Below, in pieces: positions 331-61,072 of a stretch of 64,000 bases of DNA. The notes beneath the pieces were generated by a model that ran no database searches, had not been told where the DNA came from, and saw only the letters and a program-made list of their open reading frames with translations. The position numbers and the translations under genes were made by a program. Position 1 is the stretch's first letter. Each line of letters begins with the position of its first letter. Source of the stretch: Malacoraja senta. Lineage: Eukaryota. The stretch lies in assembly GCA_038087875.1 (NCBI GenBank), contig CM075988.1, positions 18,106,001 through 18,170,000 of the forward strand. Reading direction: 5' to 3'.

Positions 331-1115
331 TCGTAACTAGTTACTCAAACTAATTGCTTCAGTCTTGTGTCCCAGTGCATATACAAAATCCTATATGAAC
401 ATTTATATATTTTTTAAATAAACCCTCGTGGTTCAAATTTGTTCTTTTTGTTAAGAAGTTGAATTATCATTTAACTTAACAGGTGACCGAATTAAGAGAG
501 TCAACTAATCTTGATGCTTGATTTTTATTTGAAGTAATCAGACTTTATGCTTTTTATTTTTAAAAAGCCTAAATTTGAAATCACTGGGAAACAGTGAAAA
601 CTGAGGATTATACTCAAAATGTTGTTACTGTACTTGGAATGCACACGGCTTATTGTTCAGAAGTGCAGCTTTTATTAAAATTTCAGGCCAATTTTAAAAC
701 CACTGCTTTCCAACCAAAGTTTTGAAACTCTGCTCTGAATTGTCTTGCTAGAAGAGCTGGGTACCACACCAGATGTATGGCACCCTTTAGTCTTGCCTAT
801 TAAGTGAATCTAATGAAAAAATCATTGGTCAAGGATCCCGACTTAATGCGTCACCTGTCCATGTTCTCCAGAGATGCTGCCTGACCTGCTGAATTACTTC
901 ACTTTGTGCCCTTTTGTATATTAACCAGCATGTGCAGTTCTTTGTTTGTACTAATGAATGATGTATAGCCTTTTCTTTAACTGGATAGCATTCAAATAAA
1001 AGCTTTTCACTGTACCTCTGTACACTGATTATAATAACCTAAATTGAATTGAACAATTCATTAGTTTTTTTAATTATGCAGGAATTAAATAGTATTTTCT
1101 GAATTGATTGTTTAG

Positions 1116-1169
1116 ATGGGGCCACAGTGGCTACAAGGAACTTTACCCAGAAGAATTTGAATCTGAGAG
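1116..1169 (+). CDS. NKAPD1: NKAPD1 (C11orf57) internal coding exon, 54 nt
   Basis: Flanked by tttag and gtaagt. Translates (R)WGHSGYKELYPEEFESE(S), matching the conserved RWGHSGYKELYPEEFE motif of vertebrate NKAPD1. Its phase-2 end joins in frame to the exon at 3596. Confidence 0.93.
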
Positions 1170-1483
1170 GTAAGTTTTAAAACATATCAACATAGTTGGA
1201 AAGGTGGTAATTTAATGTAATCGTAATCCTGAGATTCTGCTCTGAATCAGGATGGGATTGATGTTATAACATATTTCCAATCTTAATCTGATTTTATTTG
1301 TGTGTGGTGGGACAATGCTAAACGGGCGGTGGATTGGACATGAAAAATCAAAGCAATCTAAGCCTGAGTGGACCATTCAGCCAATATTCTCTCAATATTT
1401 TCTAATCGTGGATCTGTCTTAAACATGAAATGTCTGGATCTCCACAACCCTTTGTGGAAGGGAATTCAAAAGTTCAATGCCAA

Positions 1484-1782
1484 GGGCGGCACAGTGGTGC
1501 CACTACCTCACAGCACCAGAAATCCAGATTTAAAACTGTCTGTGTGGAGTTTGCTCGTTCTCCCTGTGGCCCCACGGGTTTCCACCGGCCGCTCCGGTAT
1601 CCCCCCACATCCCAAAGGCGTGCGGGTTCGTAGGTTAATTGGCCTTTGTAAATTGCCCCTGGTGTGCAGGGAGTGGATGCGAAAGTGGGATAACGTAGAA
1701 CTAGTGTGAATGGGTGATCAGTGGTCGGCGTGAACTCGGTGGGCGGAAGGGCCTGTTTCCATGCTGTGTCTCTAAAAACTAA
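1484..1782 (+). mobile_element. HE1-type tRNA-derived (V-)SINE
   Basis: GGGCGGCACAGTGG tRNA-like head, central gtgtggagtttg...ctccggt..cccacatcccaaag core, CR1-like tail gaagggcctgtttcc...ctaaa. Confidence 0.85.
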
Positions 1783-2314
1783 GTGGGGGAATTTGCCCTG
1801 ATCTGTCCCTTCTTATCTAGATTGAGCCCTGGTCAGAGGCACCTCACTGCAGCTACCTGTGAGAGTGAGGTCATCAAATGTGTCTACCAAAGTGCAGCCC
1901 ACTGTTTAATCTCTCCTTGTGACAAGCCTGTCTTCCTGCAGAGTCAGTCTAGTGAAGAATCTCTGCATTCCTTCTGTCGCTAATAAATCCTCCCATAGGA
2001 TGATCCCTACACGATTGGAGAACATCTCTACACTTGTACCGTATAGGCCCACCACTGATATTCTGGCACCCTTGGTTCCAGAGCCATTCTGGATTGTCCG
2101 TTTTGCTAGACCAACAGAGGTCATGGCCACCGAGAGGAGTGTGACGGTACTAGAACGGTCCGCTGGGGGGACTTCTGGGGGAGGGATTTCAAGTGCGCTC
2201 TCATGATTTGGTCCAGATTAAAGGAGGTGCTGGACCACCAGTTGCCAGATAATCAGTGATGGTCCTGTACTTGAATCCTCTTGCAATATACTGGTTACTT
2301 TCCTATTGCTTGAC

Positions 2315-2540
2315 GGGCAACTTTGTTACACAAAGGGTGGTAGGTATATGGAACAAGCTACCGGAGGAGGTAGTTGAGGCAGGTCTATCACAATGTTTAA
2401 AAAAACATTTGGACAGGTACATGGATAGGATAAGGATATGGGCCAAATGCGGGCAAGTGGAACTATTATAGATGGGGCATGTTGGTCGAAATGGGCAAGT
2501 TGGGCCGAAGGGTCTGTTTTCATGTTCTATGACTCTATCG
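2315..2540 (+). mobile_element. CR1/HER1-like LINE 3' end
   Basis: Translates GNFVTQRVVGIWNKLPEEVVEAG. Tail ctatgactctat. Confidence 0.8.
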
Positions 2541-3073: not shown

Positions 3074-3348
3074 TTTGGTTTAGTTTAGAGATACAGTGTA
3101 GAAACAGGCTTTTTGGCTCACTAAGTCCGAGCCAACCAGCAATCACACTAGCGGCAATTTACAGAAGCCAATGAACCTGCAAACCTACACGTCTTTGGAG
3201 TGTGGGAGAAAACCAGAGCACCTGGAGAAAACCCACGCAGCCACAGGGTGAACGTCAAACTCGGTACAGAAACACCTGTGGTCAGGTTTGAACTCGTGTC
3301 TCTGGCGCTCTAAAGCAGCAACTCGACTGCTGTGCCACTGTGCCGCCC
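3074..3348 (-). mobile_element. HE1-type SINE
   Basis: Reverse complement of the same head, core and (ctaaa)n tail as the copy at 1484. Confidence 0.85.
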
Positions 3349-4680: not shown

Positions 4681-6276
4681 ACTGCCCTCCATAATGTTGG
4701 CGACAAAGACCCATTTATTTATTTGCCTCTGTACTCAATTTGAGATTTGTAATAGAAAAAATCACATGTGATTAAAGTGCACAGTCAGATTTTAATAAAG
4801 GCCATTTTTACACATTTTGGTTTCACCATGTCGAAATTGCAGCAGTCCCCCCCCCATTTCAGGGCACCATAATGTTTTGGACACAGCAATGTCATGTAAA
4901 TGAAAATAGTCATGTTTAGTATTTTGTTGCATAGCCTTTGCATGCAATGACTGCTTGAAGTCTGCGATTCATGGACATCACCTGTTGCTGGGTGTCTTCT
5001 CTGGTGATGCTCTGCCAGGCCTGTATTGCAGCCATCTTTAGCTTCTGCTTGTTTTGGGGGCTAGTCCCCTTCAGTTTTCTCTTCAGGATATAAAAGGCAT
5101 GCTCAATTGGGTTCAGATCGGGTGATTAACTTGGCCACTCAAGAATTGACCATTTTTTAGCTTTGAAAAACTCATTTGTTGCTTTAGCAGTATGTTTGGG
5201 ATCATTGTCTTGCTGTAGAATGAACCGCTGGGCAATGAGTTTTGAGACATTTGTTTGAACTTAAGCAGATAGGATGTGTCTATATACTTCAGAATTCATT
5301 ATGCTACTACCATCAGCAGTTGTATCATCAAATGATGATAAGTGAGCCAGTACCTTCAGCAGCCATACATGCCCAGGCCATAACACCCCCACCACTGTGT
5401 TTCACAGATGACGTGGTATGCTTTGGATCTTGGGCAGTTCCTTCTCTCCTCCATACTTTGCTCTTGCCATCACTCTGATGTAAGTTAATCTTAGTCTCAT
5501 CTGTCCACAAGACCTTTTTCCAGAACTGTGGTTGTTCTTTTAAGTACATCTTGGCAAACTGTAACCCGGCCATCCTATTTTTGCGGCTAACCAGTGGTTT
5601 GCATCTTGCAGTGCAGCCTCTGTATTTCTGTTCATGAAGTCTTCTGCAGATAGTGGTCATTGACAAATCCACACCTGACTCGTGAAGAGTGTTTCTGATG
5701 TGTTGGACAGGTGTTTGGGGATTTTTCTTATTATAGAGAGAATTCTTCTGTCATCAGCTGTGGAGGTCTTCCTTGGCCTGCCAGTCCCTTTGCAATAAGT
5801 AAGCTCACCAGTGCTCTCTTTCTTCTTAATGTTGCTCCAAACAGTTGACTTTGGTAAGCCTAAGGTTTGGCTGATGTCTCTAACAGTATTATTCTTGTTT
5901 CTCTGTCTCATAATGGCTTTGTTGACTTGGCACAACTTTGGTCCTCGTGTTGATCAAAGGTGATGGAAAGACTGGAGGAAAGACTAGGTGCTGAGAGCTC
6001 TCTGATACCTGCATTAAGGAAGCAATTAAACACACCTGAGCAATTACAAACACCTGTGAAACCATGTGTCCCAAACATTATGGTGTCCTGAAATGGGGAA
6101 CTATGTATAAACACAGCTGTAATGTATACATGGTGAAACCAAAATGTATAAAATTGGCCTTTATTAAAATCTGACAATGTGCACTTTAACCACATGTGAT
6201 TTTTTTCTATTACAAATCTCATATTGTGGAGTACAGAGGCAAATAAATAAATGATGGGTCTTTGTCGCCAACATTA
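4681..6276 (-). mobile_element. Tc1-family DNA transposon (IR/DR type), decayed
   Basis: ~200 bp terminal inverted repeats (4681-~4885 and ~6065-6276), each with outer and inner direct repeats (ccataatgtt...gaca), enclosing a transposase pseudogene. Confidence 0.93.
4916..5935 (-). pseudogene. Tc1 (DD34E-type) transposase, disrupted by a frameshift and stops
   Basis: HTH region with GRPRKT, then [41 protein letters not shown] and a KGYATKY* end. Frameshift near 5715 and in-frame stops. Confidence 0.93.
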
Positions 6277-11648: not shown

Positions 11649-12256
11649 TGGTAAAGGTAAAGCAAACAATTCTCCTTACAGTCTCCCTGAGATGTTGGGT
11701 AGGTTTCATCCTGCTGACCAACGTTCCTGTGTGACCAGGTGTATTTATGACAATCCCAAGCTGTGTCAGTGGAGCTGCTTCCTCACCTCCCACCTTGTGC
11801 CATCCATTCCTTGATGAACTAAAAATAAACACTGGGCATTAATTTACTGGGCTGCAGACAGACTCGCACTGAACTGGACGAGTTCATGTTTTTCCATGTG
11901 CACTGTCACAGTGACAAGTCAAAATAGTTAATGAAAAACATGCTGAAAAGTTAAACAAAAGACACGTGCACTGGAGATCAGACGTCGAAGCAGAAGTGAT
12001 GAAAAGTTCTGACGACAGGTCATTGTACTGAACTATTAACTGTTTCCCTCTCCACAGTTACTGCCTGGCCTGCTGAGTATTTCCAGCATTTGTAATTTAT
12101 TTTTACAGCAACATGTGTATTCTAATATGAACAATATGGCCACATAAATGCTGCTGGTGATTGCAAGTCTATTCGTGCAAAAAGACACACAGTACTGGAG
12201 TAACTCAGCGGGCCAGGCAGCATCTCTGGAGAACATGGACCCATCTTTAGACTGAA

Positions 12257-12590: not shown

Positions 12591-15189
12591 GAGACCCGAA
12601 ACGTCACCTATCCATGTTCTCCAGTGATGCCACCTGTCCCGCTGACTTATCCCTGGTCTCTGGCGCTGTAAGGCTGCAAATGCACTGCTGTGCCTTGTGT
12701 TTGCAGAGCTCCTTTTATAAGCCCACGATACCTCAGATATGTCACAACCATGAGTACAACCAGCAGTTACTGGTATAATGTGGGGAACAGGACAGTCAGT
12801 TTGCAAACTGCCGTCTACAGTATGAAAATGACCAAATGATGAACTTGTGATATAGGTTAAGAGGTAACTGCTGTCCCCACACTGGGCTGAAGAAACATTC
12901 TCGCGTCACAGTGGTCAGGCTGCATTTGGAATATACTGTGTTCAGTTTAGGTCACCCTGCTACTTGAGGGATGCTGAAGATAGACACAAAATGCTGGAGT
13001 AACACAGCGGAACAGGCAGCATCTCTGGAGAGTTACTCCAGCATTTTGTGTCTATCTTCATGTAAATTAGCATCTGCAGTTCCTTTCTATACATACTGTA
13101 TGAAGGATCAAGGCAAGTGGGTCAAGAGTGCCATTTAGCTGGAAAAAGCCCAGAGAAGATTTACGAGGATGTTGCCAGGACTTGGGCTGCTCTATAGGGG
13201 GAGGTGTTGGGCAGGCTAGGATTTTATTTACAGAGGTGCATAAAATCATGAGGGGAATAGATAGGGTGAATGCAGTCTTTTTTACTCCACAGTAGGGGGA
13301 AATGAAGAACCAGAAGATGTGGCTTTAAGGTAAGTGGGGAAGATGTAATAGGAACCTGAGAAGCAACTTTTCCACACAGAAGGTGATGGGTGTATGGAAC
13401 GAGTGGACCGAGTTGGGGCAGGTAGAAGCTGGGTCGAAGGACCAGTTTCTGTGTTGTATGACTCTATGAATCACGATGGTGGTGCTGACCAGAGACCAGG
13501 GATGCAGGATTTCATTCTCCCGGCTGCTGCCTCCCTCTGCTGTACAGAGGAGTTGGCCAAACTTCCATTTCCTAGTGCCATTGACGCGGACCGGATTTTG
13601 GAACTTTGGAAATGGCGCCAAATCTGGCGACTCAAAACAATTTCACAGTGTTTTACACGTGACACCATTGAAGACGTGCAGCTTTTATTGGCTTCTGTAA
13701 ACCTTGAGTGTAGGATAGAACTAGTGTACATGTGATCGCTGGTGGGCGCGGACTCGGTGGGTCGAAGGGCCTGTTTCTGCGTCGTATCTCTAAACTAAAT
13801 TATAAGGTGAAACACTGGCTTCTGTCGTGAAGTGGGAGTCTGGGACTGGCAGGCATAGAGTCATACAGCCTGGGAACAGGCCCTTCGCCCCGACTTGTCC
13901 ATGCTGACCAATGATGCCCCATTCAAACCAGTCCAATTTACCCACATTTGGCCCAGATCCCTCCAAACCTTTCCTATCCATGTACCTGTCCAAACATCTG
14001 TTAAATGTTGAGGACTACCCAGCACAACTAAAGAATAGGTGACGTTTCGGGTCGAGACCCGACCTGAAACATCACCCATTCCTTCTTTCCAGAGCTGCTG
14101 CCTGTCCCGCTGACTTACTCCAGCATTTTGTGTCTATCTTTGGTAAACCAGCATCTGCAGTTCCTTCCTACACAAATAAACAACATCCTGACTCACCATC
14201 TGAAGAGGGAGAGGCAGAAGGCCTCATCGCGTCTACACGCTATTGGCATGTGGGTGCATGAAGAGCCATGTGCTGTGGTCACGGATCCAGTGCAGGCAGG
14301 TGGGATTGACTGAAGCAATGTTCAAGGGCCGAATGGCCTTCTGCAGTGATAGAATTTTTCTACCATGCCCAAATATCACATTATCTGCCTTTGTGTCAGC
14401 TTGTTTCCTTGCAAAGTACTTTGGGATGTTACAGGAGCTACAGAAATGAAATTTACACTGTGTTGTTCTGAATCAGGCCTGCTGTACCGAGAGCAGCCAG
14501 CTGGGGGTGCCACTGGCCTGGTCCAGCACCAGCTCGGCAGAGCCACCCACAGGTGATGCCCGGCATTTCAAAGAGTAGCAGCACAGGTTTGCAATACAGA
14601 AGGTGCACAGTCTGCTTTGGACTAGGGACATTATCCCAGCATGGAAAGCTCAGGAAATTCTGCACAACTAAATATAAATGATTTAGATGAAAACGCAGGT
14701 GGGCAGATTACTAGGTTTGCAGACAATATAAAATTTGGGGGAGCTGCGGAAAGAGAGAAAGGTTATCAAAGGTTACAGCAGGATATAGACCAGTTACAGA
14801 GTCATACAGAGTCTCTTTTCACTATCCGTTGTATGGATTGTATGCACTTATGTATGGGTTGTCACAGAATGAAAGGACATACCTTTAGAATGGAGATGAG
14901 GAGGAATTTCTCTAACCAGAGGGTGGTGAATCTGCAATTCATTGCCACAGATTGTGGTGGAGGTCAAATCAATGGGTATTTGTAAGGCAGAGATTGACAG
15001 ATTCTTGATTAATAACGCCATCAAAGATTATGGGGAGAAGGCAGAAGAACATAGATCAGCCATGATTGAATGGCAGAGTAGACCCGATGGGCTGAATGGC
15101 CTCATTCTGGCCCCATGATAGTACTTATTTTCTAATGTGATCTGACTGGATAGCAGGCAAATAAGGTTTTGTACTTATCTCGGTACATA

Positions 15190-17655: not shown

Positions 17656-17814
17656 CTTAAGACAAAGTGCTGGAGGAACTCAGCAGGTCAGGAGGGAATG
17701 GACAAGACAACTTCAGTTCAGTTTAGTTTATTGTCACGTGTACCGAGTCAGCGGAAAGACAATACATAATTACAATTGGGCCATTCACAGTTTACAGATA
17801 CATGATAAGGGAAT

Positions 17815-17997
17815 GTGTCAGAAAGAACTGCAGATGCTGATTTAAATTGAAGGTAGGCACAAAATGCTGGAGTAACTCAGTGGGACAGGCAGCATCTCTG
17901 GAGAGAAGGAATGGTCTCGACCCGAAACGTCACCCACTCCTTCTCTCCAGAGATGCTGCCTGTCCTGCTGAGTTACTCCAGAATTGTGGGTCTACCA
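17815..17997. repeat. Penelope-derived terminal repeat, inverted pair
   Basis: cacaaaatgctggagtaactcag...ggagagaagga followed by its reverse complement, with gacccgaaacgtcaccc at the centre. Confidence 0.8.
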
Positions 17998-18251
17998 TTA
18001 TAATGGAATAACATTTAGTGCTAGGTAAAGCCAGCAAAGTCCGAACAATGATAGTCTGAGGGTCACTAATGAGGTAGTTTTGAGTTGCGACGCCCCTTCA
18101 AACACTCCGTTGTGTTTCTGAGGCAACCTTTGACACGTTCAGATTGGATTTTAAATTCTCAATCTGTCTCTCAAGTGATTGTCCAAGATTGCGTGACACT
18201 GTCGTGACGCAGATGCGGGAAGGTCCTTCCGGTGATGGTTTGTGTCCCATT

Positions 18252-20512: not shown

Positions 20513-21879
20513 GGCGAAAGGAGATGAGGAGGACTTTCTTTAGCCTGAAGGTTGATAATCTATTGCCACAGATGGCTGCGTAGGCCAAGTCCTGAGGTAT
20601 TTTTACAGCGGGGATTAGTAGATTCTTGATTAGTAAAGGCATCAAAGCTTAGAGGGAGAAGGCAGAGGAATGGGGTTGGGAGGGAAAGATAGATCAGCCA
20701 TGATTGAATGGCAAAGTAGACTGGATGCGCCAAATGGCCTAATTCTGCTCCTGTGCTGGGTGCTGCCTGACCTGCTGAGTAACTCCAGCTCTTTGTGTCC
20801 TTTTGGGGAATAAATTGAGCGCATGGAATTGAGTCTTTGTGATCTTTAAATTTGAAAAGATCAAACAATCTAAATTAAATTTCATGGCAATATTTCATTA
20901 ATTTGGATCTGTGGCTGGGTTGTCTGCCTGCCTGCCTGCCTGCCTGTCGCTGTAAGATACATGCCAGCATCCTCACTGACTCTCAGGATTAGCGAACCCA
21001 CAGCTGCCTCCACTGCCAAAGCAGTAGAAAGATTAAACTTTAAAATAATTGTCGTCTTTTGTTAATTATCCTTTAATTTCTAACGCAGTAATGCTAATGC
21101 TAAACGGTGCTGCAGCGTGATATGTGATTTATTATTTAGATGGATATTAGTGATGTATAATGTATAATGCTATTAAAATTTTAAACAGGGACATTTCATT
21201 GAAGGATCCCCTGCATGTGGGGACCAGGAAACATTTCAAAGGCACTTCTAATTTGTTACCGTTTAACACTTTCTGGGAGGTTCGGTGACCAGAAGATCAT
21301 AATTTAATACGATTGGCGAAAGTACATTTTGGGCCATAAGACCCTAGGAGTTGAATTAGGCCGTTTGGCCCATCGAATCTATTCTACCATTCAATCATGG
21401 CTGATCTATTTTTCTCTCTCAACCCCATTCTCCTGCATTCTCCCCAAAGCCCTTGACGTCCTTACTAATGAAGAGCCTGTCGACCTCCGCTTTAAAAATA
21501 CCCATTGACTTGGCCTCCACCGCTGTCTGTGGCAATGAATTCCACAGATTCACCACCCTTTGACACAAACAATAGTTTTATAGATCGCAGGTAGTAAGTC
21601 ATAGAATCATTGAGCAAAGCAGCACGGGAACAGGCCCTTCGGCCCACCATGTGCGTTCCTTTCTGCGCCAGCCTACCATGTGAGATCTTGTCAAATGGCT
21701 TACTGATGTCCACGTCGACATTGCCTCTCAACCTGCCTTCATCAATCTTCTCAGTTACCTCCTCAAACAATAATGAGTGAGGCAGGATTTCCCCGCACAA
21801 TGCCATCAGGCTCTGCTTTTCCAAATGTACATAAATTCCAACCATTGGGTAATTCCATCCATTTCCCGTATAATTAGGG

Positions 21880-23726: not shown

Positions 23727-24310
23727 TCTCAGCCCAAATCCGTCTCCACGCCAAAGGCATTTGTGTTTCCGATAAATGACATTTTGCTTCTGTTTATGGT
23801 AGGCAAACAAATCACAGCAATACTGCTTGTGTATTTTCTTGGGGATAAAAGTTGTTTATTAAATCCTACTGTTTCTAGACGGCCAAGGGCACCAAAAACA
23901 AATTGTTTTATCGAGTCCTCTGCCTGGTTTACTGGTTGTTGCATCGTGTCGGAATCAGGTGCCTTGTGGGCCCATTCCTCCTCGGTTCCCAGTCCAGTCC
24001 CAAACCCAACAAAACCTCCATCTCGCTCCTGCTCTCCCTCACACCCTGTCCCAAATCCTGCTCTCTCCAACTTCCAGTCCCACTCCAGTCCCAACGCCAG
24101 CTCCCAACCCAGGAGTCCTGGTCCAAGTCTTATTCCATATTCACCACATCCACTCGCTTACCCGACACCTCCCATCCCCATTCCGAATACTAGTCCAGCT
24201 CCAACCTCCTCCAGCCCAATCCCATTCCAGCTCCAGGATTTGGACTCCAGTTCCAAATCCTGCTCCATTTATTCCTGCTCCAGTTCCCTTCTGGCTCTCA
24301 ATCCTGTTTC

Positions 24311-24405
24311 GGGTCTGAAGAAGGGTCCTGACCTGAAACGCCACCCATTCCTTCTCTCCAGAGGTACTGCCTGTCCCGCTGAGTTACTCCAGCATGTTGT
24401 GTCTA
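24311..24405 (+). ncRNA. Minimal type I hammerhead-ribozyme-like motif in a Penelope-derived repeat
   Basis: GGGT-CTGAAGA-ag-ggtc-ct-gacc-t-GAAAC-GCC-ACCC. Stem I (GGGT/ACCC) and stem II are intact, but the cleavage triplet is GCC rather than GUC. Confidence 0.6.
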
Positions 24406-24723
24406 AGGTCAGTTTTTTTTCTCAGGTTAGGGTTCAAAACTAGATGGCAAAGGTTTAAGGTGAGAGGGGAAGGACTTAAAGTGGATCTGAGGGGCAACCT
24501 TTTCACACACAAGGTGGTGGGTATGTGGAACAAACTGCCAGAGAAAGCTTCCATTGACTCCATTTATACCTCATGCTGCCTCGGCAAGGCCAGCAGCATA
24601 ATCAAGGATGAGTCGCACCCTGGCCACTCCCCACTCCCCACTCCACTCTCCCATCGGGCATAAGGTATAGAAGTGTGAAAACGCACACCTCCAAATTCAG
24701 GGGCAGTTTCTTCCCAGCTGTTA

Positions 24724-27262: not shown

Positions 27263-27385
27263 GCTCGATTGTAAATGGCTCGATTGTAATCATGTATTGT
27301 CTTTCCGCTGACTGGATAGCACACAACAAAAGCCTTTCACTGTACCTCGGTACACGTGACAATAAACTAAACCGAACTCAGTAGA

Positions 27386-27614
27386 TAGAAACGAAATGCT
27401 GGAGTAACTCAGCGGAACAGGCAGCATCTCTGGGGAGAAGGAATGGGTGACGTTTCAGGGTCGAGACCCTTCGTCAGTCTGAAGAAGGGTCTCGCTCCGA
27501 AACTCATTCATCACCCATTCCTTCTCTCCATAGATGCTACCTGTCCCGCTGAGTTACTCCAGCATTTTGTGTCTATCTTCGGTTTAAACCAGCATCTGCA
27601 GTTCCTTCCTACAC
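27386..27614. repeat. Penelope-derived inverted pair with an intact hammerhead core on the minus strand (27445-27477)
   Basis: The minus strand reads CTGACGA-agggtctcgaccct-GAAAC-GTC-accc. The plus-strand partner begins ctgaagaagggtctcg at 27478-27479. Confidence 0.75.
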
Positions 27615-28664
27615 ATGAGCTCCTTGGAGGCGGGCACTCTGTGGACACCATCCATTGATCTTTAAGTGTGGCGTCGGATGCAGTTGTTTGCGTGGAGAAG
27701 CACTGTGTTTGTTTCAGCAGTGGGGGGAGCTCCCTGCAAACAGACCCACCGCGTCAGGCAACGCACGCACTCCGGTGTTTACCATTTTCACAAAATACCA
27801 ACCCTTTTATGAAAAGTCATGTTCAAAGAAAAACAAATTGATGACATCACTTTAAGTGCCCGTGGATTAATTTAATGCAGAATAATCATTCGTCTCTTCT
27901 GACAACAGCTCCATTTGTCTGGGATTTCAACTAATGCAGAAATCCCAGAGCACAAGGCAGGTTCAATTGCACCAGCACTCCAGTCTCTCATCTCTACTTC
28001 ATAAGGTCATATGTTCTGGGGGCAGAATTAGGCCATTCGGCCCATCAAGTCTACTCTGCCATTCAATCATGACTGATCTATGCCTGATCTATCTTTTCCT
28101 CTCAAGTCCATTCTCCTGCCTTCGCCCCATAACCTCCGACACCCGTACTAATCAAGAATTTGTCAATCTCCACCTTAAAAATATCCATTGATGGCCTCCA
28201 TCTACACTTCCGGCTGCCTCAGGAAAGCAGCCAACATAATCATGCACAAAATTATGTGAGGAATAGATCGGGTAGACACATACAGAATCTCTTGCCACAG
28301 CGTAGAGGAATCGAGGACCAGAGGACATTGGTTTAGGTGAGGGGGGAACGATACACCAGAAACGTGAGGGGCAACTTTTTCACACAAAGGGTGGTGGGTG
28401 TATGGAATGAGCTGCCGGAGGAAGTGGTTGAGGCAGGGACTAACACAACATTTAAGAAACGTTTAGACTGGTACATGGATAGGACAGGTTTAGAGAGATA
28501 TGGGCCAAACGCATTGTAGATGGGACATGTTGGTTGGTGTCGGCAAGTTTGGCCGAAGGGCCTATTTCCACGCTGTATAACTCTATGACTCTAATCAAGG
28601 ACCACTCACCCGCTGGTCATTCCCTCTTCTCCCCGCTCCCGTCAGGCAGAACATACAAAGGTTC

Positions 28665-35053: not shown

Positions 35054-35634
35054 GAGACCACACCTGGAGACCACACTTGGACAACACACCTGGAGACCAC
35101 ACCTGGACAACACACCTGGAGACCACACCTGGACAACACACCTGGATACCACACCTGGAGACCACACCTGGACAACACACCTGGAGACCACACCTGGAGA
35201 CCACATCTGACCACATCCAGAGACCTCACTTGGAGACTATACCTGGAGACCACACCTGGAGACCACACCTGGAGACCACATCTGACCACATCCAGAGACC
35301 TCACTTGGAGACCACACCTGGAGACTATACCTGGAGACCACACCTGGAGACCACACCTGGACAACACACCTGGAGACCACACCTGGACAACACACCTGGA
35401 TACCACACCTGGAGACCACACCTGGACAACACACCTGGAGACCACACCTGGAGACCACATCTGACCACATCCAGAGACCTCACTTGGAGACTATACCTGG
35501 AGACCACACCTGGAGACCACATCTGACCACATCCAGAGACCTCACTTGGAGACCACACCTGGAGACTATACCTGGAGACCACACCTGGAGACCGCATCTG
35601 ACCACATCCAGAAACCACACTTGGAGACCACACC
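35054..35634 (+). repeat. 13-bp minisatellite (CCACACCTGGAGA)n with higher-order variant blocks
   Basis: About 45 units. A recurring cassette ccacatctgaccacatccagagacctcacttggaga appears about 5 times. Confidence 0.95.
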
Positions 35635-36160
35635 AGTAGACTGTGGGCAGTCCTGGTCACCCAGCTACAGGGGTGATGGCATTAAGTTGGAAAGGATGCA
35701 GAAGAAATTCACCAGGATGCTACCCGGGCTTGTGGGCTAGAGTTATAGGGAGAGGTTGGATAGGTTGGAACTTTTTTCTTTGGAGTGCAGGAGATTGTGG
35801 GGTGAGCTTATTGAGGTGTACAAGATCACGAGAGGCATGGATAAGGTGAACACTAACAGTCTTTTCCACAGGGTAGAGGATTCTTAAGGCACAGGCTTAA
35901 GGCGAGAAAGGAGAGATGTAAGAGGGATGTCATGGGCAACTTTTCACACAGAGGGTAGTCCTTATCTGGAGCCACCCGAGGAAATTATGAAAGTGAATAC
36001 AATTATAACGTTTAGAAAGACAGTTGGCAGGTGCAGTATATGGAGAGGAAGGGTTTAGAGTGACATGGGGCAAATGCAGGCAAATGTGAGTTGCCCATCA
36101 TGCCAACTTGGTCGACATTGACAAGATGGGCTGAAGGGCTTTTATCCCTGCTGTTCAGCT
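35635..36160 (+). mobile_element. CR1 3' fragment continuing from the minisatellite
   Basis: DCGQSWSPSYRGDGIKLERMQKKFTRMLPG corresponds to CR1 YCVQFWSP...LERVQKRFTRMLPG. Confidence 0.85.
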
Positions 36161-37458: not shown

Positions 37459-37830
37459 AGAAATCAGCAGAAAAGGAATAGGTGACATTCTGGGTCGAGA
37501 CCCTTCATCAGACTGAGAGTCGGGACAAATAAAGACAAAATGTTCCATGCCTGGAATGTTTCATCTGGACCATAGTGGACAACCGTAACTCAGCGAGTCC
37601 TGACTCAAAACATCACCTACATTTCTCCAGAAATGCTGCCTGAACCGCTGAGTTACTCCAGCTTTATGTGTCTATGTTTGTTTTAAACCGGCATCTGCAG
37701 TTCCTACATAGATTATTCTACCATTTGTATTTCCATTTATTCATTTTGTTTACTCGTGATCGGATTTGGAAATGCTAATGCTGGTTTAGGCAACAGTATT
37801 TTCAACATGGATCATAGCAAGGTTGTGCCT

Positions 37831-41485: not shown

Positions 41486-41698
41486 TGTGTTGGAAAGAAC
41501 TGCAGATGCCGGTTTAAATTGAAGGTAGACACAAAATGTTGGAGTAACTCAGCGGGACAGGCAGCATCTCTGGAGAGAAGGAATGGGTGACGCTTCGGGT
41601 CGAGACCCTTCTTCAGTCTTGACCCGAAACGTCACCCATTCCTTCTCTCCAGAGATGCTGCCTGTCCCGCTGAGTTGCTCCAGCATTTTGTGTCTACC
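41486..41698. repeat. Penelope-derived inverted pair (near-perfect ~80-bp arms)
   Basis: ggtagacacaaaatg...gggtgacgcttcgggtc and gacccgaaacgtcaccc...cattttgtgtctacc. Confidence 0.85.
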
Positions 41699-43182
41699 AT
41701 AGCCTTCAATCCCTGGCTGATTCAAGGATCGTTTAGATGCCACTGAAATGTTCTGAGAGTTTCTGCCTCTCCCTTTCCTCAGGCACTGCGTTCAAGTTTG
41801 CAGCCAACCTCTGGGTAAAATTGTTCACATCTTCTCACAGCCTCTCCCCGCTGGTTTTGGACACCGCTGCAATGGGGAAAATGTTCCTCCTATCTACCCT
41901 ATCCGAACCCATACCCCTCATAATTTTATCACACCTCAATCAGCTCCCCCTGGTTCAAGAAAATCACTTCCAGCCTCTCCAGTCTCCCCACATAACCCAA
42001 ATGCCCCATCTCAGGTAATATCCAGGTGAATCTCCTTTGCACCATCTCCAGTGTAGTCATGTCTCTCCTATGGTGTGTACAGTACTCCATCTGTGCCATG
42101 CCATTGTTTTAGGAAGCTGTCCCATAAATTCATAAGTTTATGTTTATTAGTCATTGGAGCAGAATTAGGCCACTCGGCCCATCGGGTCTCCTCGGACATT
42201 TAATCATGGCCTGATCAATCTTTCCCTCTCAACCCCATTCTCTTGCCTTCTTGCCATAACCCCTGACACCCTTACTAATCAAGAATCTGTTCATCTCCAC
42301 CTTTAAAATATGCATTGGCTTGGCCTCCACAGCTTTATTATTCTGTTGCTGCTAGATGTGACAATGAAACACCCTTGCCGTGACTCTTGACTTTAGACTT
42401 AAGAGATACAGCACGGAAACAGGCCCTTCGGCCCACCGAGACTGCTACGACCAGCGATCACCCCGTACACTAGCACCACCCTACGCACCAGGGACAATTT
42501 ACAATTGTACCAAAGCCAGTTTACTGCCGCCCTGATTTGCAGTATGGATTTTGGCTTCGCAGAATTGTGGTCTGGTTAGCCGATAATACTGTTTATTAAT
42601 TGTTTGTATTATTAATTATGCTCCGTTTATTTGCGTGTTCTTGCATCAATGGGCCTGCATAGCTGCAAGTAGGAATTCTGTTGTTCTGTTGCTGGTAGAG
42701 GTGACAATCAAACACCCTTGACTTGACTCTTGAGACCTTTTTCAGGACCCTGACGTAAGCCTCTGTCCCATCCGTGAGCATCTATCCTCTGTCAGCACAA
42801 AGACACCTGGTCTTCTTACTTCATTACCTCTTCCAGTGAGCCGGCCTCCTCTCATTAGTTCACTCTGTTTTCAAATTATAGAGAGTGACCTTCTACATAT
42901 GATGGCAAATTTGAAACAGGCTCTTTATATTTATTTCCTGGGACTTTTTAATTAAAAATTGATTTTTGTGGGAGCATAGTTAATGAAATCCTCTTTCCTG
43001 CAAGTTTAGTGAACCAACAGCACCAGATATTTGTGAAAAATAGAGACCTTTAATAGGCCATAACTTTGCCGTAGAGTATCCAATTCAGGTGATTCATATT
43101 TTGAAACGACACATAGAAGGAACAAATATATAAAAAGTATATTTTATTGATCAACAAAACTATTGTTTTGTTACTTAATCAT

Positions 43183-43470: not shown

Positions 43471-43565
43471 GTTGCATCAAGTTCTGAATGCTATTTGTCC
43501 TTTTTTCCTCGGGCAGCTGATTGCCATGAAGGGTGTCATACTGTGTGCAGCAGCAGCAGGCAAAA

Positions 43566-43777
43566 TGTGTAGGAAGGAAAAGCAGATGCTGGTTTATACT
43601 GGAGACAGCACACAAAGTGCTGGGGTAACCCAGCGTGGTCAGGCAGCATCTCTGGAGAAAAAGGACGGGTGACGTTTCGTGTCTGAAGAAGGGTTCCGAC
43701 CCGAAACGTCACCTGTCCTTTTTCTCCAGAGATGCTGCCTAGCCTGTTGAGTTGCTCCAGCACTTTGTGTCTATCTG
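43566..43777. repeat. Penelope-derived inverted pair with an intact hammerhead core on the plus strand (43683-43710)
   Basis: gt-CTGAAGA-agggttccgaccc-GAAAC-GTC-ac. Confidence 0.78.
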
Positions 43778-43931
43778 TCAGCAGCAGACCCAGGCTGTGG
43801 GACGGGTCCGCGGCGGACGAAGACTATGGATGGGAAGTCGATCTCCATCACAGCCACGCAGAGTCTCGGCGTTCCCAGGCTAAAGCAACGACACCGCTTC
43901 AGAACCTGCATGCACTTAGAAAGATGCGAAA

Positions 43932-47950: not shown

Positions 47951-48065
47951 AAAAAGTGAGAAACTGAGGGGTAATCTTTTTACACAAAGGGTGGTAGGTG
48001 TATAGAATGAGCTGCCAGAGGAGGTAGTTGAGGCAGGTGCTATCACAATGTTTAAAAATACATTT

Positions 48066-48192
48066 GTGTGGGAAGGAACTGCAGATGCTGGTTTATTCCG
48101 TAAGATAGACACAAAATGCTGGAGTAAGTTCAGGCAGCATCTCGGGAGAAAGGGAATAGGTGACGTTTCGGGTCGGAACCCTTCTTCAGACT
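48066..48192 (-). ncRNA. Penelope-derived repeat with an intact hammerhead core (48158-48192), inserted in a CR1 fragment
   Basis: Minus strand: cagt-CTGAAGA-agggttccgaccc-GAAAC-GTC-acct. The host CR1 (47960-48065, 48215-48345) flanks it. Confidence 0.65.
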
Positions 48193-48454
48193 GGTCTATC
48201 TAAAAAATAAAAATCTGGACAGTACATGGATAGGACAGGTTTAGAGGGATATGGGCCAAATGCAGGCAGGTGGGACTAGGGTCAATATGGGCATGTTGGG
48301 TCAAAGGGCCGGTTTCCACACTGTATCATTCTATGACTCTAATCTACACGATGACTAATCTATGACTCTATCAAACACAAGCATGTTTAAAATAAAATAT
48401 TCAGTGCAACCAGCAAGATTTGAAGTGTCTGAAGTCCCATTTATATCAATGGGT

Positions 48455-49968: not shown

Positions 49969-52015
49969 TTGTGGACTGGGTTCCTGTTCACACCCACTGT
50001 AACATCAAATGGTCTTCCTTGATTCAATGTGTGTGATACCTCACTGTCCCTGTAATGTTTGGCCAATAAATTGCTTCCCTTTTGAAACAAAAAAACCTTC
50101 AAACAGTTAATGTATTTTTCAGCTGACGGGGCTACTTTTAAAACATTCACCTTACCTTTCTGTCAGATGTGAAATAACCTGCACAGCCTTTCCAGAGTTT
50201 GAAGACAGACACAAAATTCTGGAGTAACTCAGCGGGGCAGGCCGCATCTCTGGAGAAAAAGAATTTTGATTCGAGACTTTCCCCCTCCCTATCTCTCGGT
50301 CCGACGAAGGGTATCGCTGAGTCTCCAGCATTTTGTGTCTGGCTTCAGTGTAAACCAGCATCTGTAGTTCCTTCCTACACATTTCCTGAGCTTGGTTGAG
50401 TTTCATATCTCCTTTACAACTGAGCTTGTGGCTTCACTGTGTGACACAGAGTTTCACCCTTTCACAGATATCAGTGAGTACGATGCATGGTGATGACTGC
50501 TTTCATCACGTGAGTTAAGCCCACACTCTGCACCTTTGGCACCCTTTGCTAACCAGGAGAAAAGGAGCCAAGTGCAAAGCTATTCTGGACTAATTATACA
50601 TTTCATTTGCAAATAATTGGATGGCACAATCACTTCCTCACCTTTCCTACAGCTGTCCTCTTTGATAAACCAAATTCTCCTTATGTTTTTTCTGAGAACA
50701 TAAATTAGCAGAGACACCAGCAAACTGCAGGTGCTGGAAACGTGAGCAAAAAACAAAGTGCTGGAGGAACTCAGCGGGTGGGGCAGCATCTGTGGATGAA
50801 GTGGACTGACCATGATATGGGTCGGGACAACTTCTTCACACTGATCAGTTGTCTGTCCATTCCCTCCGCAGATGCTGCCTGACCTGCCGAGTTCTTCCAG
50901 CACTTTGTATTTCTGCATTTATTAATTGCTGTTTTTCACACAAGCTAATGCTAAGCTGTATTTCTCCATTCTAGCCACGGTGGAAGCGCCTGTGAGAGGG
51001 GACTACAGCCGCAGATTTTAATTATCTATAGATAGAAGATAGACACAAAATGCTGGGGAGAGGAAAACTAGCGGTATGAATGACACGATACGATATGATA
51101 TGATAGAACTTTATTGATCCCAGGAGGGAAATTGGTCTGGCAATATAAACACAAGATACATGAAACATGAAATTAAAGTGTCGAGTGGAAAGTCCAGGAT
51201 TGGGGATGTGTGAAGATTGGGGAGGGGGGTGACGGGGGGGAGGGGGTTATGGGGAAGGGGAGTCAGTCTACCCCCGACAGGAGGGGGAGGAGTTGTACAG
51301 TTAGATAGCCTCGGGGAAAAAGGATCTCCTGTGGCGTTCTATGCTACACAGAATAGGTACAAAGAACAAAATGGGAACAACAATAGATAACGAAATAATC
51401 TCTGTTTACTTCCCCTAACTTAATTGTCATATTTATTGGTTTTCACACACTTGGCTCTTTATGTTCCTCATCATATGCTCTCATTAAGTGGAACGGGACT
51501 TGCATTCTCTGTAAATGTTTTTGCCATGCAATCCACAATGTTATTTGCCTTGAATGTCTATCCTTTGCACAGACATTTAACATCTCAATCAGAGCGGCAG
51601 CAGCTGTCTATTTACTTGTGAAATAATATATGAGGTTGAAATGTAATTTTTTGGGTCTCATGAATACTGATCAAACAGCTAAGACCACCATCTATTTCTA
51701 GAGGTGTTCTTTCAACACTCGATGTATTAACAACATCTGTGGTTTTCCTTTGAATGGATTTAGTGGAAAGCATTTTTAATATCTTGCCATTTGAAAACAT
51801 CGGGTACGTTTTCATAATGTCTGTTCCAGCGTCCCTTGAAATATCAACATCTGTTGTCGGGGACACAAGCTCAGTAATTGCTATTTGTGATATTAATGGC
51901 TCATCAGTTAATTAATTAATTTATAAGGTTGTTTCTAGGGAATGAGGGTCTTGCTTTCTGGCTGAGAAAGCGTGAGACTGGTCTGCATTGACCGGAGTTG
52001 GGATGAATAGGGATC

Positions 52016-54749: not shown

Positions 54750-54750
54750 G

Positions 54751-54788
<38 letters not shown>

Positions 54789-56842: not shown

Positions 56843-57471
56843 CAGGAGAACCAACATTTCTATTCTCTGGTCCACACTGAAACTACAGCAGCACCTCCCA
56901 ATGAGGGCAGGGTGGTGTTACCAGAATACAGAAGAGTACAGCCTCACAGAAACGATACACATAAAATCACTATCATTTAGAGCAAAATACTGGGTTGATG
57001 GATAGGTGACCTGCCAATCCTCCCTTTCTCTATTTAGGATTAACAATATCACGATTCATAGTTTGATGCTTCAACTCATCGTCGAGTCAGGAAACCTGTG
57101 CTGCATTTCGATGAATGACGAGATGTCGCCCCTCAGGCGTACAATGCCTTGCACATGAAACGTTCACCTGAGATGTAACCCTGCTTCCCTTCCACTTGCT
57201 GAGGGCAGCCAGCGTCTCCTGATTGTTCACCATCACACGCACCAACACGCACAACAATCTTGATTGAAATAACAGTGATTTTATGTGTATAATTTCTATG
57301 AATCCGTCCTCTTCTGTATCCTCCTGGTAACACCAGCCTGCTCTCATTGGGAAGTGTTGCTGTCGTGCCAGTGTGTAGAGGGGGGGGGGGAGCTTTGAAA
57401 GGACGAGGAATGGTTGTCCATCCTTGGCAAAAGTAGTGTGAAGAAGGGATCCGACCCGAAATGTCACCCAT

Positions 57472-58072
57472 GCTAACCAGTCAGCGGAAAGACTAGACAT
57501 GATCACAATCGAGCCGTCCACAGTGTGTGCAGATATATGATAACGGGAATGGCGTTTAGTGCAAGTTGAAGTCCAGTAAAGTCCAATTGAAGATAGCCCG
57601 AGGTTCTCCACTGAGATAGACAGTAGCTCAGGACTGCTCTCTTGTTGTAGATAGGATGGTTCAATTGCTGATAAAGCTGGCAAGAAACTGTCCGTGAATC
57701 TGGAGGTGTGCGTTTTCACACTTCTGTACCTGAGAGGGGAGAAGAGGGAGTGACTGGGTTGAGAATCGTCCTTCATAATGCTGAGGCAGCGAGACGTGTA
57801 GATGGAGTCAATGGAAGGGAGGTTGGTTTGTGTGATGGTCTGGTCTGCGTCCACAATTCTCTGCAATTTCTTGCGGTCTTGGATGGAGCTGTTCCCAAAC
57901 CACGTGGTGATGCCCCCCGATCAAATGCTTTCTACAGCATATCTGTAGAAGTTGGTGAGAGTTATTGGAGAAATGCCAAACTTCCTACGCCTTCTAAGGA
58001 AGTAGAGGCGTCAGTGTGCTTTCTCAGCCATTGCTTCGATACGGGTGTCCAGGATATAAGTTGCTGGTGATA
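57472..58072 (-). mobile_element. Rex1/Babar-like LINE 3' end
   Basis: LQRIVDADQTITQTNLPSIDSIYTSRCL...HTSRFTDSFLPA. Confidence 0.85.
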
Positions 58073-58377
58073 TTTACTCAAATATTAATAAATGTAGCTG
58101 AATTTTTAATTGTACGCATTCTGGCACCTTTTTGGTCAATAAAACACCCAATGCTTGCAACAATTTCCTCTGGGAAAATTGGTGCTTGAAAACAGAAAGA
58201 CAGGTCCAGGTGTCAGAAGCATTTGCAGCTTCAGTAACACTGAGAAGTTTGTGAATAAGATGGTACAATTGTCACCCTGCCCCCTTCATTATCACAGGGT
58301 ATTGTCAGAGGTTCATCTTTCTGTTCCAAGGAGCGATTTGTGGGGAAAGGAACTGCAGATGCTGGTTTACACCGAAG

Positions 58378-58735
58378 ATAAAATCATGAGAGGAATGGAT
58401 CAGGTAGGTGCACAGAGTCTCCTGCCCAGAATAGGTGAATCGAGGACCTGAAGACATAGGTTTAAGGTGAAGGGGAAAAGATTGAATAGGAATCTGAGGG
58501 GTAACTTTTTCACACAAATGGTGGTGGGTGTATTGAACAAGCTGCCAGAGGAAGTAGTTGAGGCTGGGACTATCCCGACATTTAAGAAACAGTTAGACAG
58601 GTACATGGTGTTTGGAGGGATATGGACCAAACGCGGGCAGGTGGGACTAGTGTAGCTGGGACATGTTGGCCGGTGCGGGCAAGTTAGGCTGAAGGGCCTG
58701 TTTCCACGCTGTATCACTATGATTCTATAACTCTA
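58378..58735 (+). mobile_element. CR1/HER1-like 3' end
   Basis: KIMRGMDQV...RNLRGNFFTQMVVGVLNKLPEEVVEAG. Confidence 0.85.
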
Positions 58736-59693
58736 TAGACACAAAATGCTGGAGTAACTCAGCGGGTCAGGCAGCTTCTCTGGATAGAAGGAATGGGTGA
58801 CGTTTTGGGTCGGGACCCTCCTTCAGACTGAGAGTCAGGGGAGAAGGAGACACAGAGCTATGGAAGGGAACAGGTTAAAGTTACCTGGAGAAAGGCAGCA
58901 GACTCGGCATTGGGGAGAGGCTTCCCCATCGCTGACGGCTCTTTCACGCGCCCATTGTCCCACACAAGAGCTTCAGGTGTGACACTCCTTCCTGTTGATT
59001 CCTGCAGATAGAAGAATAATGAGTGATCGGAATTACATTTCAGACCCAGTGCAGGGAGAGAATGGAAGCCTAGAGAGGCAGGATGAATGAAAGCTTTGTG
59101 CTGCCACAGCGCAAGGTGGAATAATAGCGACAGGAGAATTGCAAAGTAGAAATTCAATCACCTTAAACAAAGACAGAATTGGAGAGTTTTATGGATCTAA
59201 TTTGAACCCTGAGATTAGATAATTTGGTGGTTGTTAGTAACATTATGTGAGCAGGTCGGACCAGAGATGTTATTGGGACATGGAACAGTACGGCACAGAC
59301 ACAGGCCCTTCAGCTCACAATGCTTGTGCCATACACGATGCCTAGCAGAAATGATCTCATCTGCATGCACATGGTCCATATCCCTCTATTCCCTGCACTT
59401 CCATGCGCCTATCTAAAAGCCTCTTAAACGCCACTATCGCATGTGCCTCCAGCACCACCCCTGGCAATGCATTCCAGGCCCCCACCACTCTCCGAGTAAA
59501 CAAGTTGCCCCACACATCTTCTTTAAACTCTCCTGGACCAGGCAGGCTGGAGGACCCGTTTGGCACGAACCAGACCTTCCATTCCAATACTCACATTTAC
59601 CTATAACTTAGGAGGCCGTTCACCCATCAGATCGATGCTGGCTCTCCCTTGCCAGTTCCAATTTACTTCCCTGCAACTTGCGGGGCGACGTAT

Positions 59694-59920
59694 GGGGCGG
59701 CATAGTGGCGCAGCGGTAGAGTTGTTTTTTCCGAGTGCTCTTATTTCCTCCCACATTCCAAAGACATCCGAGTTTGAAGGTTAATTGGCCTTGGTAAAGA
59801 TTGTAAATCGGCCCTGGTGTGTAGGATAGTGCTAGTGTACAGGATGATCGCTGGTCACTCGATGGGCCGAAGGGCCTGTTTCCTTCCGCCCTGTATCTCT
59901 AAAGTCTAAAACTAAACTCT
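59694..59920 (+). mobile_element. HE1-type SINE with an internal deletion
   Basis: The head ggggcggcatagtggcgcagcggtagag is joined directly to the core. Tail present. Confidence 0.8.
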
Positions 59921-60749
59921 AACCCTATCCCTGTATTTTTCACTAACTGTGGCCAGGTAATAATCCCATTGTTCTCTGTGTCCTTCCAATCCCCTCATCA
60001 ACCTGATGAAAGGTCCCGGCCTGAAAGGTCGTCAGGCACTACTCCCTCCACAGACGTTGCCTGACCTGCTGAGTTACTCCAGCACTCCGTGTCTTTTGTT
60101 CCCTTCCTCAGAAATGACTTGGATTTGGACGTGAGGTGATGCGGTGACCAGCTCTTCCATGCGGGACAACCGAATGTGAAAATGTTACGAAACACCTCTC
60201 TGCGATAATCTAGCTGAAACCTAAAACACAGAATATGGAATTAGAGGCTGAGGAGGTCCTTATAGTTGTGTACAAGAGGGGAATAGAGAAGTATATTTTC
60301 TTTGTGTTGGATACTTGTCTTTCACTTTGATCGTCACCCAGACTTATGTTGACACATTTTCACCTGTAATCGATACTTGCTTTTTGACAACTTCCCTCTG
60401 TGTTCTGCAGCAGATATTGAATCTGTAGTTGGTATAATACATGACATCAGTGAGGTGCCACACTCTCTTCTGCCCAGCTCCACTGTGTGTCTCATTTATC
60501 ACCTCCACATTTGTGGCCCAGTCCCCTATTTGTCATGATAACTTTCAATGAGGATCTGAGTTAGCGGCGGCCTTATATCCCGAGGGTCTTGCATGCCAGC
60601 CCCTTGGTCTGTCCCCTCTCACTCCCATTAGCAGCCTACGTTCTTCCTCAGTGGTCAGGTTTACGGACTGACCACGGACTAAATATCCGGGGTTCAATTT
60701 AAGAACTCCCACTTGAGAAATCTGTTTGATCTGAATTTTGAATCCCATT

Positions 60750-61072
60750 CTGTCTGTCCTGGGCCTCCTCCATGGCCAGAGTGAGGACCACCATAAATTG
60801 GAGGAGCAGCACCTCATATTTCGCTTGGGCAGTTTGCACCCCAGCGGTATGAACATAGACTTCTCTAATTTCAGGTAGACCCTACTTTCTCCTCCCCTTC
60901 TCAACTCTCCCTCAGCCCATTGGCTCCACCTCTTCCTTTCTTCATCCCGCACCCCCCCCCCCACCCTCACATCAGTCTGAAGAAGGGTTTTGACCTGAAA
61001 CGTTGCCTATTTCCTTCGCTCCATAGATGCTGCCTCACCTGCTGAGTTTCTCCAGCATTTTTGTCTACCTTC
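60750..61072 (+). mobile_element. Penelope-like element 3' end: ORF C-terminus (GIY-YIG end) plus terminal repeat with hammerhead motif
   Basis: 60750-60878 translates LSVLGLLHGQSEDHHKLEEQHLIFRLGSLHPSGMNIDFSNFR*, the R..LE...I..L.TL.P.GLN pattern of Penelope GIY-YIG ends. Then comes cagt-CTGAAGA-agggttttgacct-GAAAC-GTT and the gatgctgcc...gctgagtt tail. Confidence 0.85.

Follow-up and report, generated by a model that had tools for sequence, protein, structure and literature searches.

What is the short repeat that recurs along a 64,000-nt stretch of the skate genome of Malacoraja senta (GCA_038087875.1, contig CM075988.1, positions 18,106,001 to 18,170,000 of the forward strand; hereafter the window), with a hammerhead ribozyme motif at its start, and how did it become so common? 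A first-pass annotation, made from the letters of the window, had described a very high-copy, self-cleaving RNA family of its own, resembling a retrozyme or a short interspersed element (SINE) and possibly mobilised by Penelope reverse transcriptase (RT). Our analysis shows that the repeat is the hammerhead-bearing pseudo-long terminal repeat (pLTR) of an abundant Neptune-type Penelope-like element (PLE). The suggestion of Penelope RT was thus well placed, whereas the separate family is not supported, because the repeat belongs to an autonomous element, includes copies joined to its untranslated region (UTR) in all six young subfamilies, has no allele specific to solo copies and has its ends away from the cleavage site.

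A profile hidden Markov model (HMM) trained on 31 genomic copies, all from outside the window, was searched against the window and against 76 ten-kb stretches at fixed round positions on contigs C1-C16 (760 kb). It matched 33 arms at 25 loci in the window and 328 arms at 255 loci in the sample, and the reversed window and reversed sample gave no match. The 361 arms of window and sample combined are the base for the end counts below. The repeat was also visible by a core scan and a self-BLAST of the window.

Upstream of the copy that begins at 60973 stand the C-terminal 42 codons of a GIY-YIG endonuclease (EN), followed by a pyrimidine-rich UTR. The pLTR itself measures ~98 nt with an optional 35-nt tail, and is found both after the 3' UTR of the open reading frame (ORF) and directly before the ORF start. 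Longer copies have the order RT (GVAMGTRMGPSYA, YIDD), thumb, CNRRKCYTC linker, GIY-YIG and then the repeat. One of them (L130) is a partial tandem of EN end, pLTR, ORF and pLTR, another (L138) begins at the ribozyme core and continues into the ORF, and the repeat lies directly upstream of the ORF start in 23 of 25 loci, five of them starting at the ribozyme edge (duplicates and L130 are among the 25). It is this layout that identifies the repeat as a pLTR. At the other end of the ORF, pLTR sequence lies within 300 nt of the EN end in 17 of 23 cases (sample and window, judged by eye), and a link to an ORF end was seen for 17 of the 361 arms. The single ORF encodes RT followed by a C-terminal GIY-YIG domain, and every copy seen was interrupted or partial. 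Pfam matches to RVT_1 (E 1.4e-5) and GIY-YIG (E 0.044) were both below the curated cut-offs; the best Atlas cluster (0.98) has the domains RVT_1, GIY-YIG and HTH_animal. Among named proteins the nearest homologues come from elasmobranchs, namely from Amblyraja (77% over 55% of the query) and, at 58-69%, from Hypanus, Mobula, Rhincodon, Chiloscyllium and Stegostoma. The CX4CxxC linker between RT and EN (CNRRKCYTC) fits the CX2-5CxxC definition that, as summarised in PMC8557442, marks Neptune/Nematis, and our assignment to Neptune, which was made on this linker, should be taken as probable. Overall the element is a further Neptune-type PLE with the expected minimal hammerhead, neither a new ribozyme class nor a new element class being shown, and the family may already be named in Repbase or Dfam.

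The likely ATG is located ~35 nt past the tail, and the reading frame through the pLTR varies among subfamilies. In UTR-linked copies of the sample, several unrelated-looking 3' UTRs (95 to >240 nt) stand between one and the same EN end and pLTR start, and the UTR therefore turns over faster than the ribozyme. The N-terminal part of the ORF holds a long repeat region rich in Pro and Thr, variable from subfamily to subfamily (L130:2770-3600; L134:3784-3900) and reminiscent of the low-complexity inserts in Adineta Penelope ORFs. The element ORF was also seen inside named ray and skate host proteins (P0003, P0014, P0103), namely divergent protein kinase domain 1C, chitinase domain-containing 1 and nicotinamide riboside kinase 1 isoforms, which may reflect either exonisation or an annotation artefact.

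Loci occur at a density of 0.336 per kb in the 760-kb sample (bootstrap 0.288-0.384) and make up 4.2% of its bases, and the repeat load of the window is therefore typical of the genome; the very high copy number claimed earlier holds. Extrapolated to the sampled contigs (1.244 Gb), this density gives ~417,000 loci, and 652,000 if the remaining contigs are similar. First-look candidates genome-wide amounted to 65,571 for the EN peptide and 11,037 for an RT piece, neither of which is a copy number. The pLTR repeat is present in sequencing runs of four organisms. In the window neither Rfam at gathering score nor ARAGORN gave a match, and Rfam in E-value mode on 43540-43800, an inverted pair, returned only miRNA-hairpin look-alikes. 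Nine near-identical loci (L002-L005, L007, L008, L011, L012 and L014) have common flanks, so pLTR copies have also multiplied within larger duplicated or satellite units.

The 165 unpaired arms divide into 89 with their start at the ribozyme edge, 32 that begin within the pLTR and 44 that run on into a UTR. The edge starts lie mostly 1-4 nt before the core at TC/AGT (edge at the slash), an initiator-like sequence. In 100 abrupt solos the match to this edge was 0.81 for T-1, 0.64 for G-2, 0.61 for A-3 and 0.34 for C-4, and upstream of -4 it was near background, except for T at -5 and -6 (0.48 and 0.44). RNA run X22 shows the same 5' edge, with unrelated letters upstream; loose ends number 469 at A-3 and 473 at G-2. 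The 3' ends are bimodal, ~35 nt apart (at positions ~94 and ~129 in family A and at 96-98 and 133-134 in family B), and by tail the abrupt solos comprise 27 long and 32 short. Of 59 abrupt solos, 26 lie between direct repeats of at least 7 nt (null 2.3%), as do 27 of 62 head-to-head pairs (null 3.3%), showing that solos and pairs are primary insertions. At the cleavage site (model positions 31-37) only 6 of the 361 arms start and 2 end, which points to uncleaved RNA as the template.

Head-to-head arms account for 112 of the 328 arms in the sample and 16 of the 33 in the window. One long-tail and one short arm were combined in 57 of 64 pair rows (56 of 63 distinct pairs; p 8e-11 against 50:50), and both arms came from the same family group in 60 of the 64 rows. 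The junctions are variable, a minority falling on the TCAG-T-CTGA or stem II palindromes. A MITE-like fixed palindrome moving as a unit was ruled out, as junction positions differ from pair to pair; a CTGACGA junction that seemed to recur was an effect of the query used.

We consider it probable that pLTRs are inserted with target-site duplications (TSDs), solo or head to head, by an RT that is primed within uncleaved RNA and copies as far as the RNA 5' end, where it runs off. Transcription would start at the initiator-like TC/AGT, making the ribozyme the first ~30 nt of the RNA; an internal promoter has been shown for D. virilis Penelope (PMC2377424). The RT-endonuclease would then nick AT-rich DNA and prime at either of two internal RNA sites, and the two 3' ends ~35 nt apart match the two RT start sites reported for the Anolis Poseidon enzyme in vitro (PMC11167929). 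The commonest insertion would be a strong-stop-like cDNA (100-135 nt) primed in the 5' pLTR, whereas priming in the 3' pLTR would yield the ordinary 5'-truncated copies with UTR or ORF. In the pairs both nicked strands would be extended, one per start site, and the two cDNAs would be joined at their heads, in many cases where short palindromes lie. Such two-ended priming of the target strands is suggested by the Anolis enzyme (PAc), which is described as cutting and extending both strands, as a predicted dimer and with no need of ribozyme cleavage (PMC11167929). In this mechanism the ribozyme would matter in source elements and not in decaying copies.

Several observations weigh against the proposed mechanism. 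The pLTR reads of X22 are equal on both strands and 91% of them continue into unrelated sequence, and we therefore regard them as copies embedded in host transcripts and not as source RNA. The start at TC/AGT is placed from the edge of the copies and the initiator consensus, so it should be taken as putative. The 5' starts scatter over 3-4 nt, and because AGT falls within the duplication in several copies, microhomology makes the edge less exact. Many pair junctions have no overlap or extra bases, and palindrome annealing explains only part of them. Self-priming on an antisense template, proposed by Arkhipova (2013) for the same inverted pLTR architecture in Adineta (PMC3846280), would also be compatible with the pair data. 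Finally, none of the 19 long copies examined had an uninterrupted full-length ORF. As a separate observation, X22 reads over two parts of the ORF (L130:1560-1830 and 2028-2460) were skewed at least ~2:1 to first-mate-plus, the pLTR being balanced; if the library is of the usual stranded type, the ORF RNA would be mostly antisense.

The alternative that survives best is that solo pLTRs propagate themselves as SINEs do, being transcribed from TC/AGT by an internal Pol II promoter and re-inserted in trans by the Neptune protein. This would agree with the sharp 5' edge and the TSDs, and with solos far outnumbering the 17 ORF-linked arms. The pLTR is also reported to suffice in cis for mobilisation in Adineta (PMC3846280), and the D. 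virilis promoter cited above would serve such copies equally. Against it, we found no solo- or UTR-joined-specific allele in 104 abrupt versus 53 UTR-linked arms (55 tests, best p=0.034), UTR-linked copies occur in all six young subfamilies, and the interior of the core decays no more slowly than the background; in this small sample minor solo lineages could escape. A SINE head derived from tRNA, 7SL or 5S RNA was not found either, as the solos start at the ribozyme with random flank and the window has no Rfam or ARAGORN match. We regard self-propagating solos as unlikely to be the main source, although they can coexist with the insertion from uncleaved RNA proposed above, and a SINE-like second round from solo copies is possible.

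Ordinary 5' truncation, in which RT on long RNAs would stall just past the ribozyme, for instance at a C-rich tract (G-rich cDNA), would place no RNA end at the edge. PLE insertions are described as usually 5'-truncated (PMC8557442; bioRxiv 10.64898/2026.07.22.740005), and a C-rich tract does lie just upstream in all UTRs. However, the stops cluster before this tract, ~25 times denser than inside the pLTR (a rough rate), the same edge is common to different UTRs, and the stops do not pile up at the 3' foot of stem II, which together make stalling improbable. Still less probable is a non-LTR retrozyme, in which the ribozyme would cut tandem units that are then made into circles and reverse-transcribed. 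Animal retrozymes are reported to derive from PLE pLTRs, with one chondrichthyan case (bioRxiv 10.64898/2026.07.22.740005), and we counted 27 same-strand neighbours within 300 nt. These neighbours are nevertheless irregular fragments with unlike ends, the copies end away from the cleavage site and the motif is minimal and not canonical type I; no tandem array of the repeat was found in the window, and no head-to-tail units with a canonical type I hammerhead in the window or the 760-kb sample. Host exons spliced to a CAG acceptor and then retroposed would agree with the resemblance of the pyrimidine tract and CAG to a splice acceptor, and of bases -4 to -2 to an exon end. This origin and recombination between direct pLTRs, to which Adineta solo pLTRs without TSDs are ascribed (PMC3846280), are both largely ruled out by the TSDs that abut the solo 5' edge, since the upstream flank is then local target DNA, and few full-length elements are available to recombine.

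The copies in the window are listed below, on the evidence of the profile HMM except for the first two rows; further evidence is given in brackets.

60750-60878, plus strand: C-terminal 42 codons and stop of a Neptune-type GIY-YIG endonuclease, 5'-truncated copy (translation; by tblastn 100% identical across 42 aa with a natural RT-thumb/Zn-finger/GIY-YIG ORF)
60879-60972, plus strand: the element's pyrimidine-rich 3' UTR (common to ORF-bearing copies)
60973-61076, plus strand: pLTR, subfamily A, intact motif with GUU triplet, short 3' end (motif and subfamily calls)
831-943, plus strand: solo pLTR, subfamily C, damaged core (subfamily call)
12005-12113, plus strand: old-family pLTR, decayed, 4-bp stem I (AGUU/AACU) (family comparison)
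12180-12239, minus strand: pLTR fragment without core
12593-12650, plus strand: pLTR fragment
12971-13093, both strands: head-to-head pair, junction downstream of the ribozyme, no core (junction analysis)
14030-14174, both strands: head-to-head pair, junction within stem II (junction analysis)
17660-17692, minus strand: short pLTR fragment
17814-18000, both strands: head-to-head pair, one long and one short arm (junction analysis)
20760-20827, plus strand: pLTR fragment without core
24306-24416, plus strand: pLTR with GCC as its mutated triplet, next to the stub of an inverted arm (motif check)
27379-27615, both strands: head-to-head pair, junction at the TCAG-T-CTGA palindrome, short minus arm and long plus arm (junction analysis)
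30384-30485, plus strand: solo pLTR beginning at the core, 8-nt TSD (TSD analysis)
37466-37515, minus strand: pLTR head fragment
37595-37712, plus strand: pLTR with long tail, core missing
41486-41709, both strands: head-to-head pair, long and short arm, flanking direct repeat (junction and TSD analysis)
43566-43778, both strands: head-to-head pair, plus arm 43680-43778 with full motif, 9-nt flanking direct repeat (motif, junction and TSD analysis)
48065-48193, minus strand: solo pLTR with long tail and full motif, starting at CAGT (motif check)
50198-50381, both strands: rearranged head-to-head pair (junction analysis)
50722-50911, both strands: head-to-head pair, older subfamily D (junction analysis, subfamily call)
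50991-51058, minus strand: tail fragment
57435-57473, plus strand: pLTR head fragment
58342-58381, minus strand: tail fragment, weak match (E 0.005)
58735-58830, minus strand: pLTR, subfamily B1, with ~37 nt of 3' UTR (subfamily call)
60000-60095, plus strand: older pLTR copy (CUGAUGA) (family comparison)

All 21 coordinates listed by the first-pass annotation were recovered in this search, so the high-copy dispersed repeat it described is real. Its list had missed the copies at 17660, 37595, 50991 and 58342 together with the partner arms, and the head-to-head pairing went unreported. Fourteen arms in the window cover the core, all core nucleotides are kept in six of them, and core and stems in three (43680 plus, 48193 minus and 60973 plus). 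The first two of these had been called as intact cores, but the arm of the third call, at 27477 on the minus strand, shares the junction palindrome, which leaves it with a broken stem I and one additional T ahead of GAAA. At 24311 the triplet is GCC and not GUC, and the GGGT of its supposedly covarying GGGT/ACCC stem falls within TTTCGGGT, which is ACCCGAAA of the element itself in reverse complement; what looked like covariation is thus the remainder of an inverted arm. In the sample, 180 of the 328 arms span the core, 76 with all core nucleotides and 26 with core and stems. From the sample we estimate roughly 43,000-66,000 complete hammerhead motifs genome-wide, against 4,000 in coelacanth and 9,000 in Xenopus in a survey that used different descriptors (PMC4209133).

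The claimed hammerhead motif, CUGANGA-A-stem II-GAAAC-GUH, is present and stands at the start of the pLTR. From the column counts we predict a minimal hammerhead, with an extra A before stem II, G10.1-C11.1, a palindromic ACGU replacing helix III and no stem III loop. Helix I has 2 bp in the young families and 4 bp in the old family (AGUU/AACU, with one added U-A pair), which often has CUGAUGA and A-U at the base of stem II (10.1-11.1); the AGTT/AACT stem reported at 12005 is therefore genuine and typical of that family. The N7 variation read as a hammerhead signature stands in part: of 228 arms, 199 have A and 19 have T, which is partly a genuine trait of the older family, and the sporadic C and G occur in 4 and 6. 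The claim of stem covariation is mostly not supported, as most of the apparent covariation is CpG decay or inverted-junction chimeras. Columns 23-24 read CG in 144, CA in 57 and TG in 56 copies, so the change from gaccc to gacct is CpG decay, the commonest kind of stem change among copies. Double changes were in excess in one of nine stem pairs (7 versus 1.9 shuffled, p 0.001, uncorrected for relatedness or test number), and the helices of the two largest families differ by one-sided wobble that keeps the pairing (U-A to U-G or C-G to U-G).

The core proved more constant than the other columns at one level only. Among the six young subfamily consensuses none of 11 core columns varies, compared with 27 of 85 other columns (one-sided p=0.02), whereas interior core columns show no excess conservation among copies and mutate like downstream bases (A 0.058 versus 0.062, T 0.076 versus 0.051). 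The whole core is seemingly more conserved (110/2008 versus 730/10088; 29 changes observed versus 51.5 expected), but its 5' half is biased by alignment starts, and with neutral interior columns selection on inserted copies, although conceivable, is not supported. As constraint appears only between subfamily consensuses, these comparisons indicate that the motif is maintained in the source elements and decays after insertion.

The predicted ribozyme would cleave only as a dimer or with the help of protein; published metazoan minimal hammerheads are described as cleaving poorly, as dimers or with protein (PMC4209133, PMC11167929). None of four natural copies had the active fold at minimum energy, GAAGAAGGG pairing instead with downstream pyrimidines, and a partial dimer fold (stems II and III) reached -12.7 against -17.5 kcal/mol for the best cofold, both results being uninformative on activity. 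The possible partner of GAAGAAGGG of the core (pLTR columns 7-14) in the folded copies is the pyrimidine tract immediately downstream of the cleavage site (columns 37-46), a pairing that may serve as an off-switch fold. The poly(A) reads of X22, an insensitive test, showed no pile-up of read ends at the predicted cleavage site.

Hammerheads in Penelope pLTRs are known already. Minimal hammerheads were reported in 2014 in the pLTRs of fish Neptune and also of Xena and Poseidon (PMC4209133), and the motif described there by Cervera and de la Pena has the same core, extra nucleotide before helix II, G10.1-C11.1, palindromic 15.2-16.2 and lack of a helix III loop, and likewise occurs mostly as single dispersed motifs with some opposite-strand pairs. 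A helix I of 4-5 bp belongs to its description; our young families have 2 bp, as is reported for D. virilis, and the old family has 4 bp. No shark or skate was named in the supplement files searched. Neptune PLEs with EN (Arkhipova 2006, summarised in PMC8557442) are alike in RT, CX2-5CxxC linker and C-terminal GIY-YIG, and in pLTRs, partial tandems, inverted 5' copies, a 30-40 bp tail at one end and the pLTR hammerhead, but here pLTR-only insertions dominate (~4% of sampled DNA). The Poseidon element PAc of Anolis carolinensis (Frangieh 2024, PMC11167929) has two RT start sites that define the tail, ~100-130 nt past the ribozyme, and genomic copies uncut at the ribozyme site; it is of another clade, with an ORF that starts inside the ribozyme, whereas the likely ATG here follows the tail. 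Adineta vaga Penelope (Arkhipova 2013, PMC3846280) resembles our element in head-to-head pLTRs, junction palindromes, a tail on one arm, TSDs of 8-10 bp and an Inr-like site, but is described with few copies and several solos without TSDs, as opposed to an estimated hundreds of thousands of copies and solos with TSDs. Animal non-LTR retrozymes (PMC7229834; bioRxiv 10.64898/2026.07.22.740005) also have hammerhead repeats related to pLTRs, and with 126,247 canonical motifs in axolotl a comparable total (PMC7229834), yet they form head-to-tail arrays with canonical type I ribozymes and circular RNAs, in contrast to dispersed or inverted copies with a minimal motif and ends off the cleavage site. 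A Penelope expansion in whale shark introns has been noted (bioRxiv 10.1101/443036). In the open literature, with Repbase, Dfam and subscription journals outside the search, we found no published work on the elasmobranch family, on TSD-flanked solos at the ribozyme edge or on a count of the long/short rule, so what we did not find in print is the scale and the end statistics.

Of the window, 35% is self-similar, and other repeat families of 200-600 bp, presumably SINE and CR1-type LINE (long interspersed element) ends, adjoin pLTR copies. On the minus strand at ~5430-5720 the translation resembles a Tc1/mariner transposase fragment, and a 13-bp tandem array of ~46 copies occupies 35054-35642.

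Taken together, we tentatively suggest that a Pol II RNA of 100-135 nt starting with a predicted hammerhead is the main insert of the element, as a strong-stop-like product or as a Penelope-dependent equivalent of a SINE, and that it makes up ~4% of an elasmobranch genome in several hundred thousand copies. Hammerhead searches of elasmobranch genomes will in any case return tens of thousands of dead pLTR motifs and should be read with caution. The sharp 5' edge, the TSD-flanked solos and the long and short arms lead to exact predictions on PLE insertion, and an estimated 10^5-10^6 insertions with readable ends and TSDs are enough for statistical tests of insertion models, touching on one-end tails, the origin of inverted pLTRs and the role of the ribozyme. 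If our reading is true, the near-strict rule of one long and one short arm would be genomic evidence of a Penelope dimer that primes both target strands from two RNA sites, and the estimated 90,000-140,000 inverted pairs would form long RNA hairpins.

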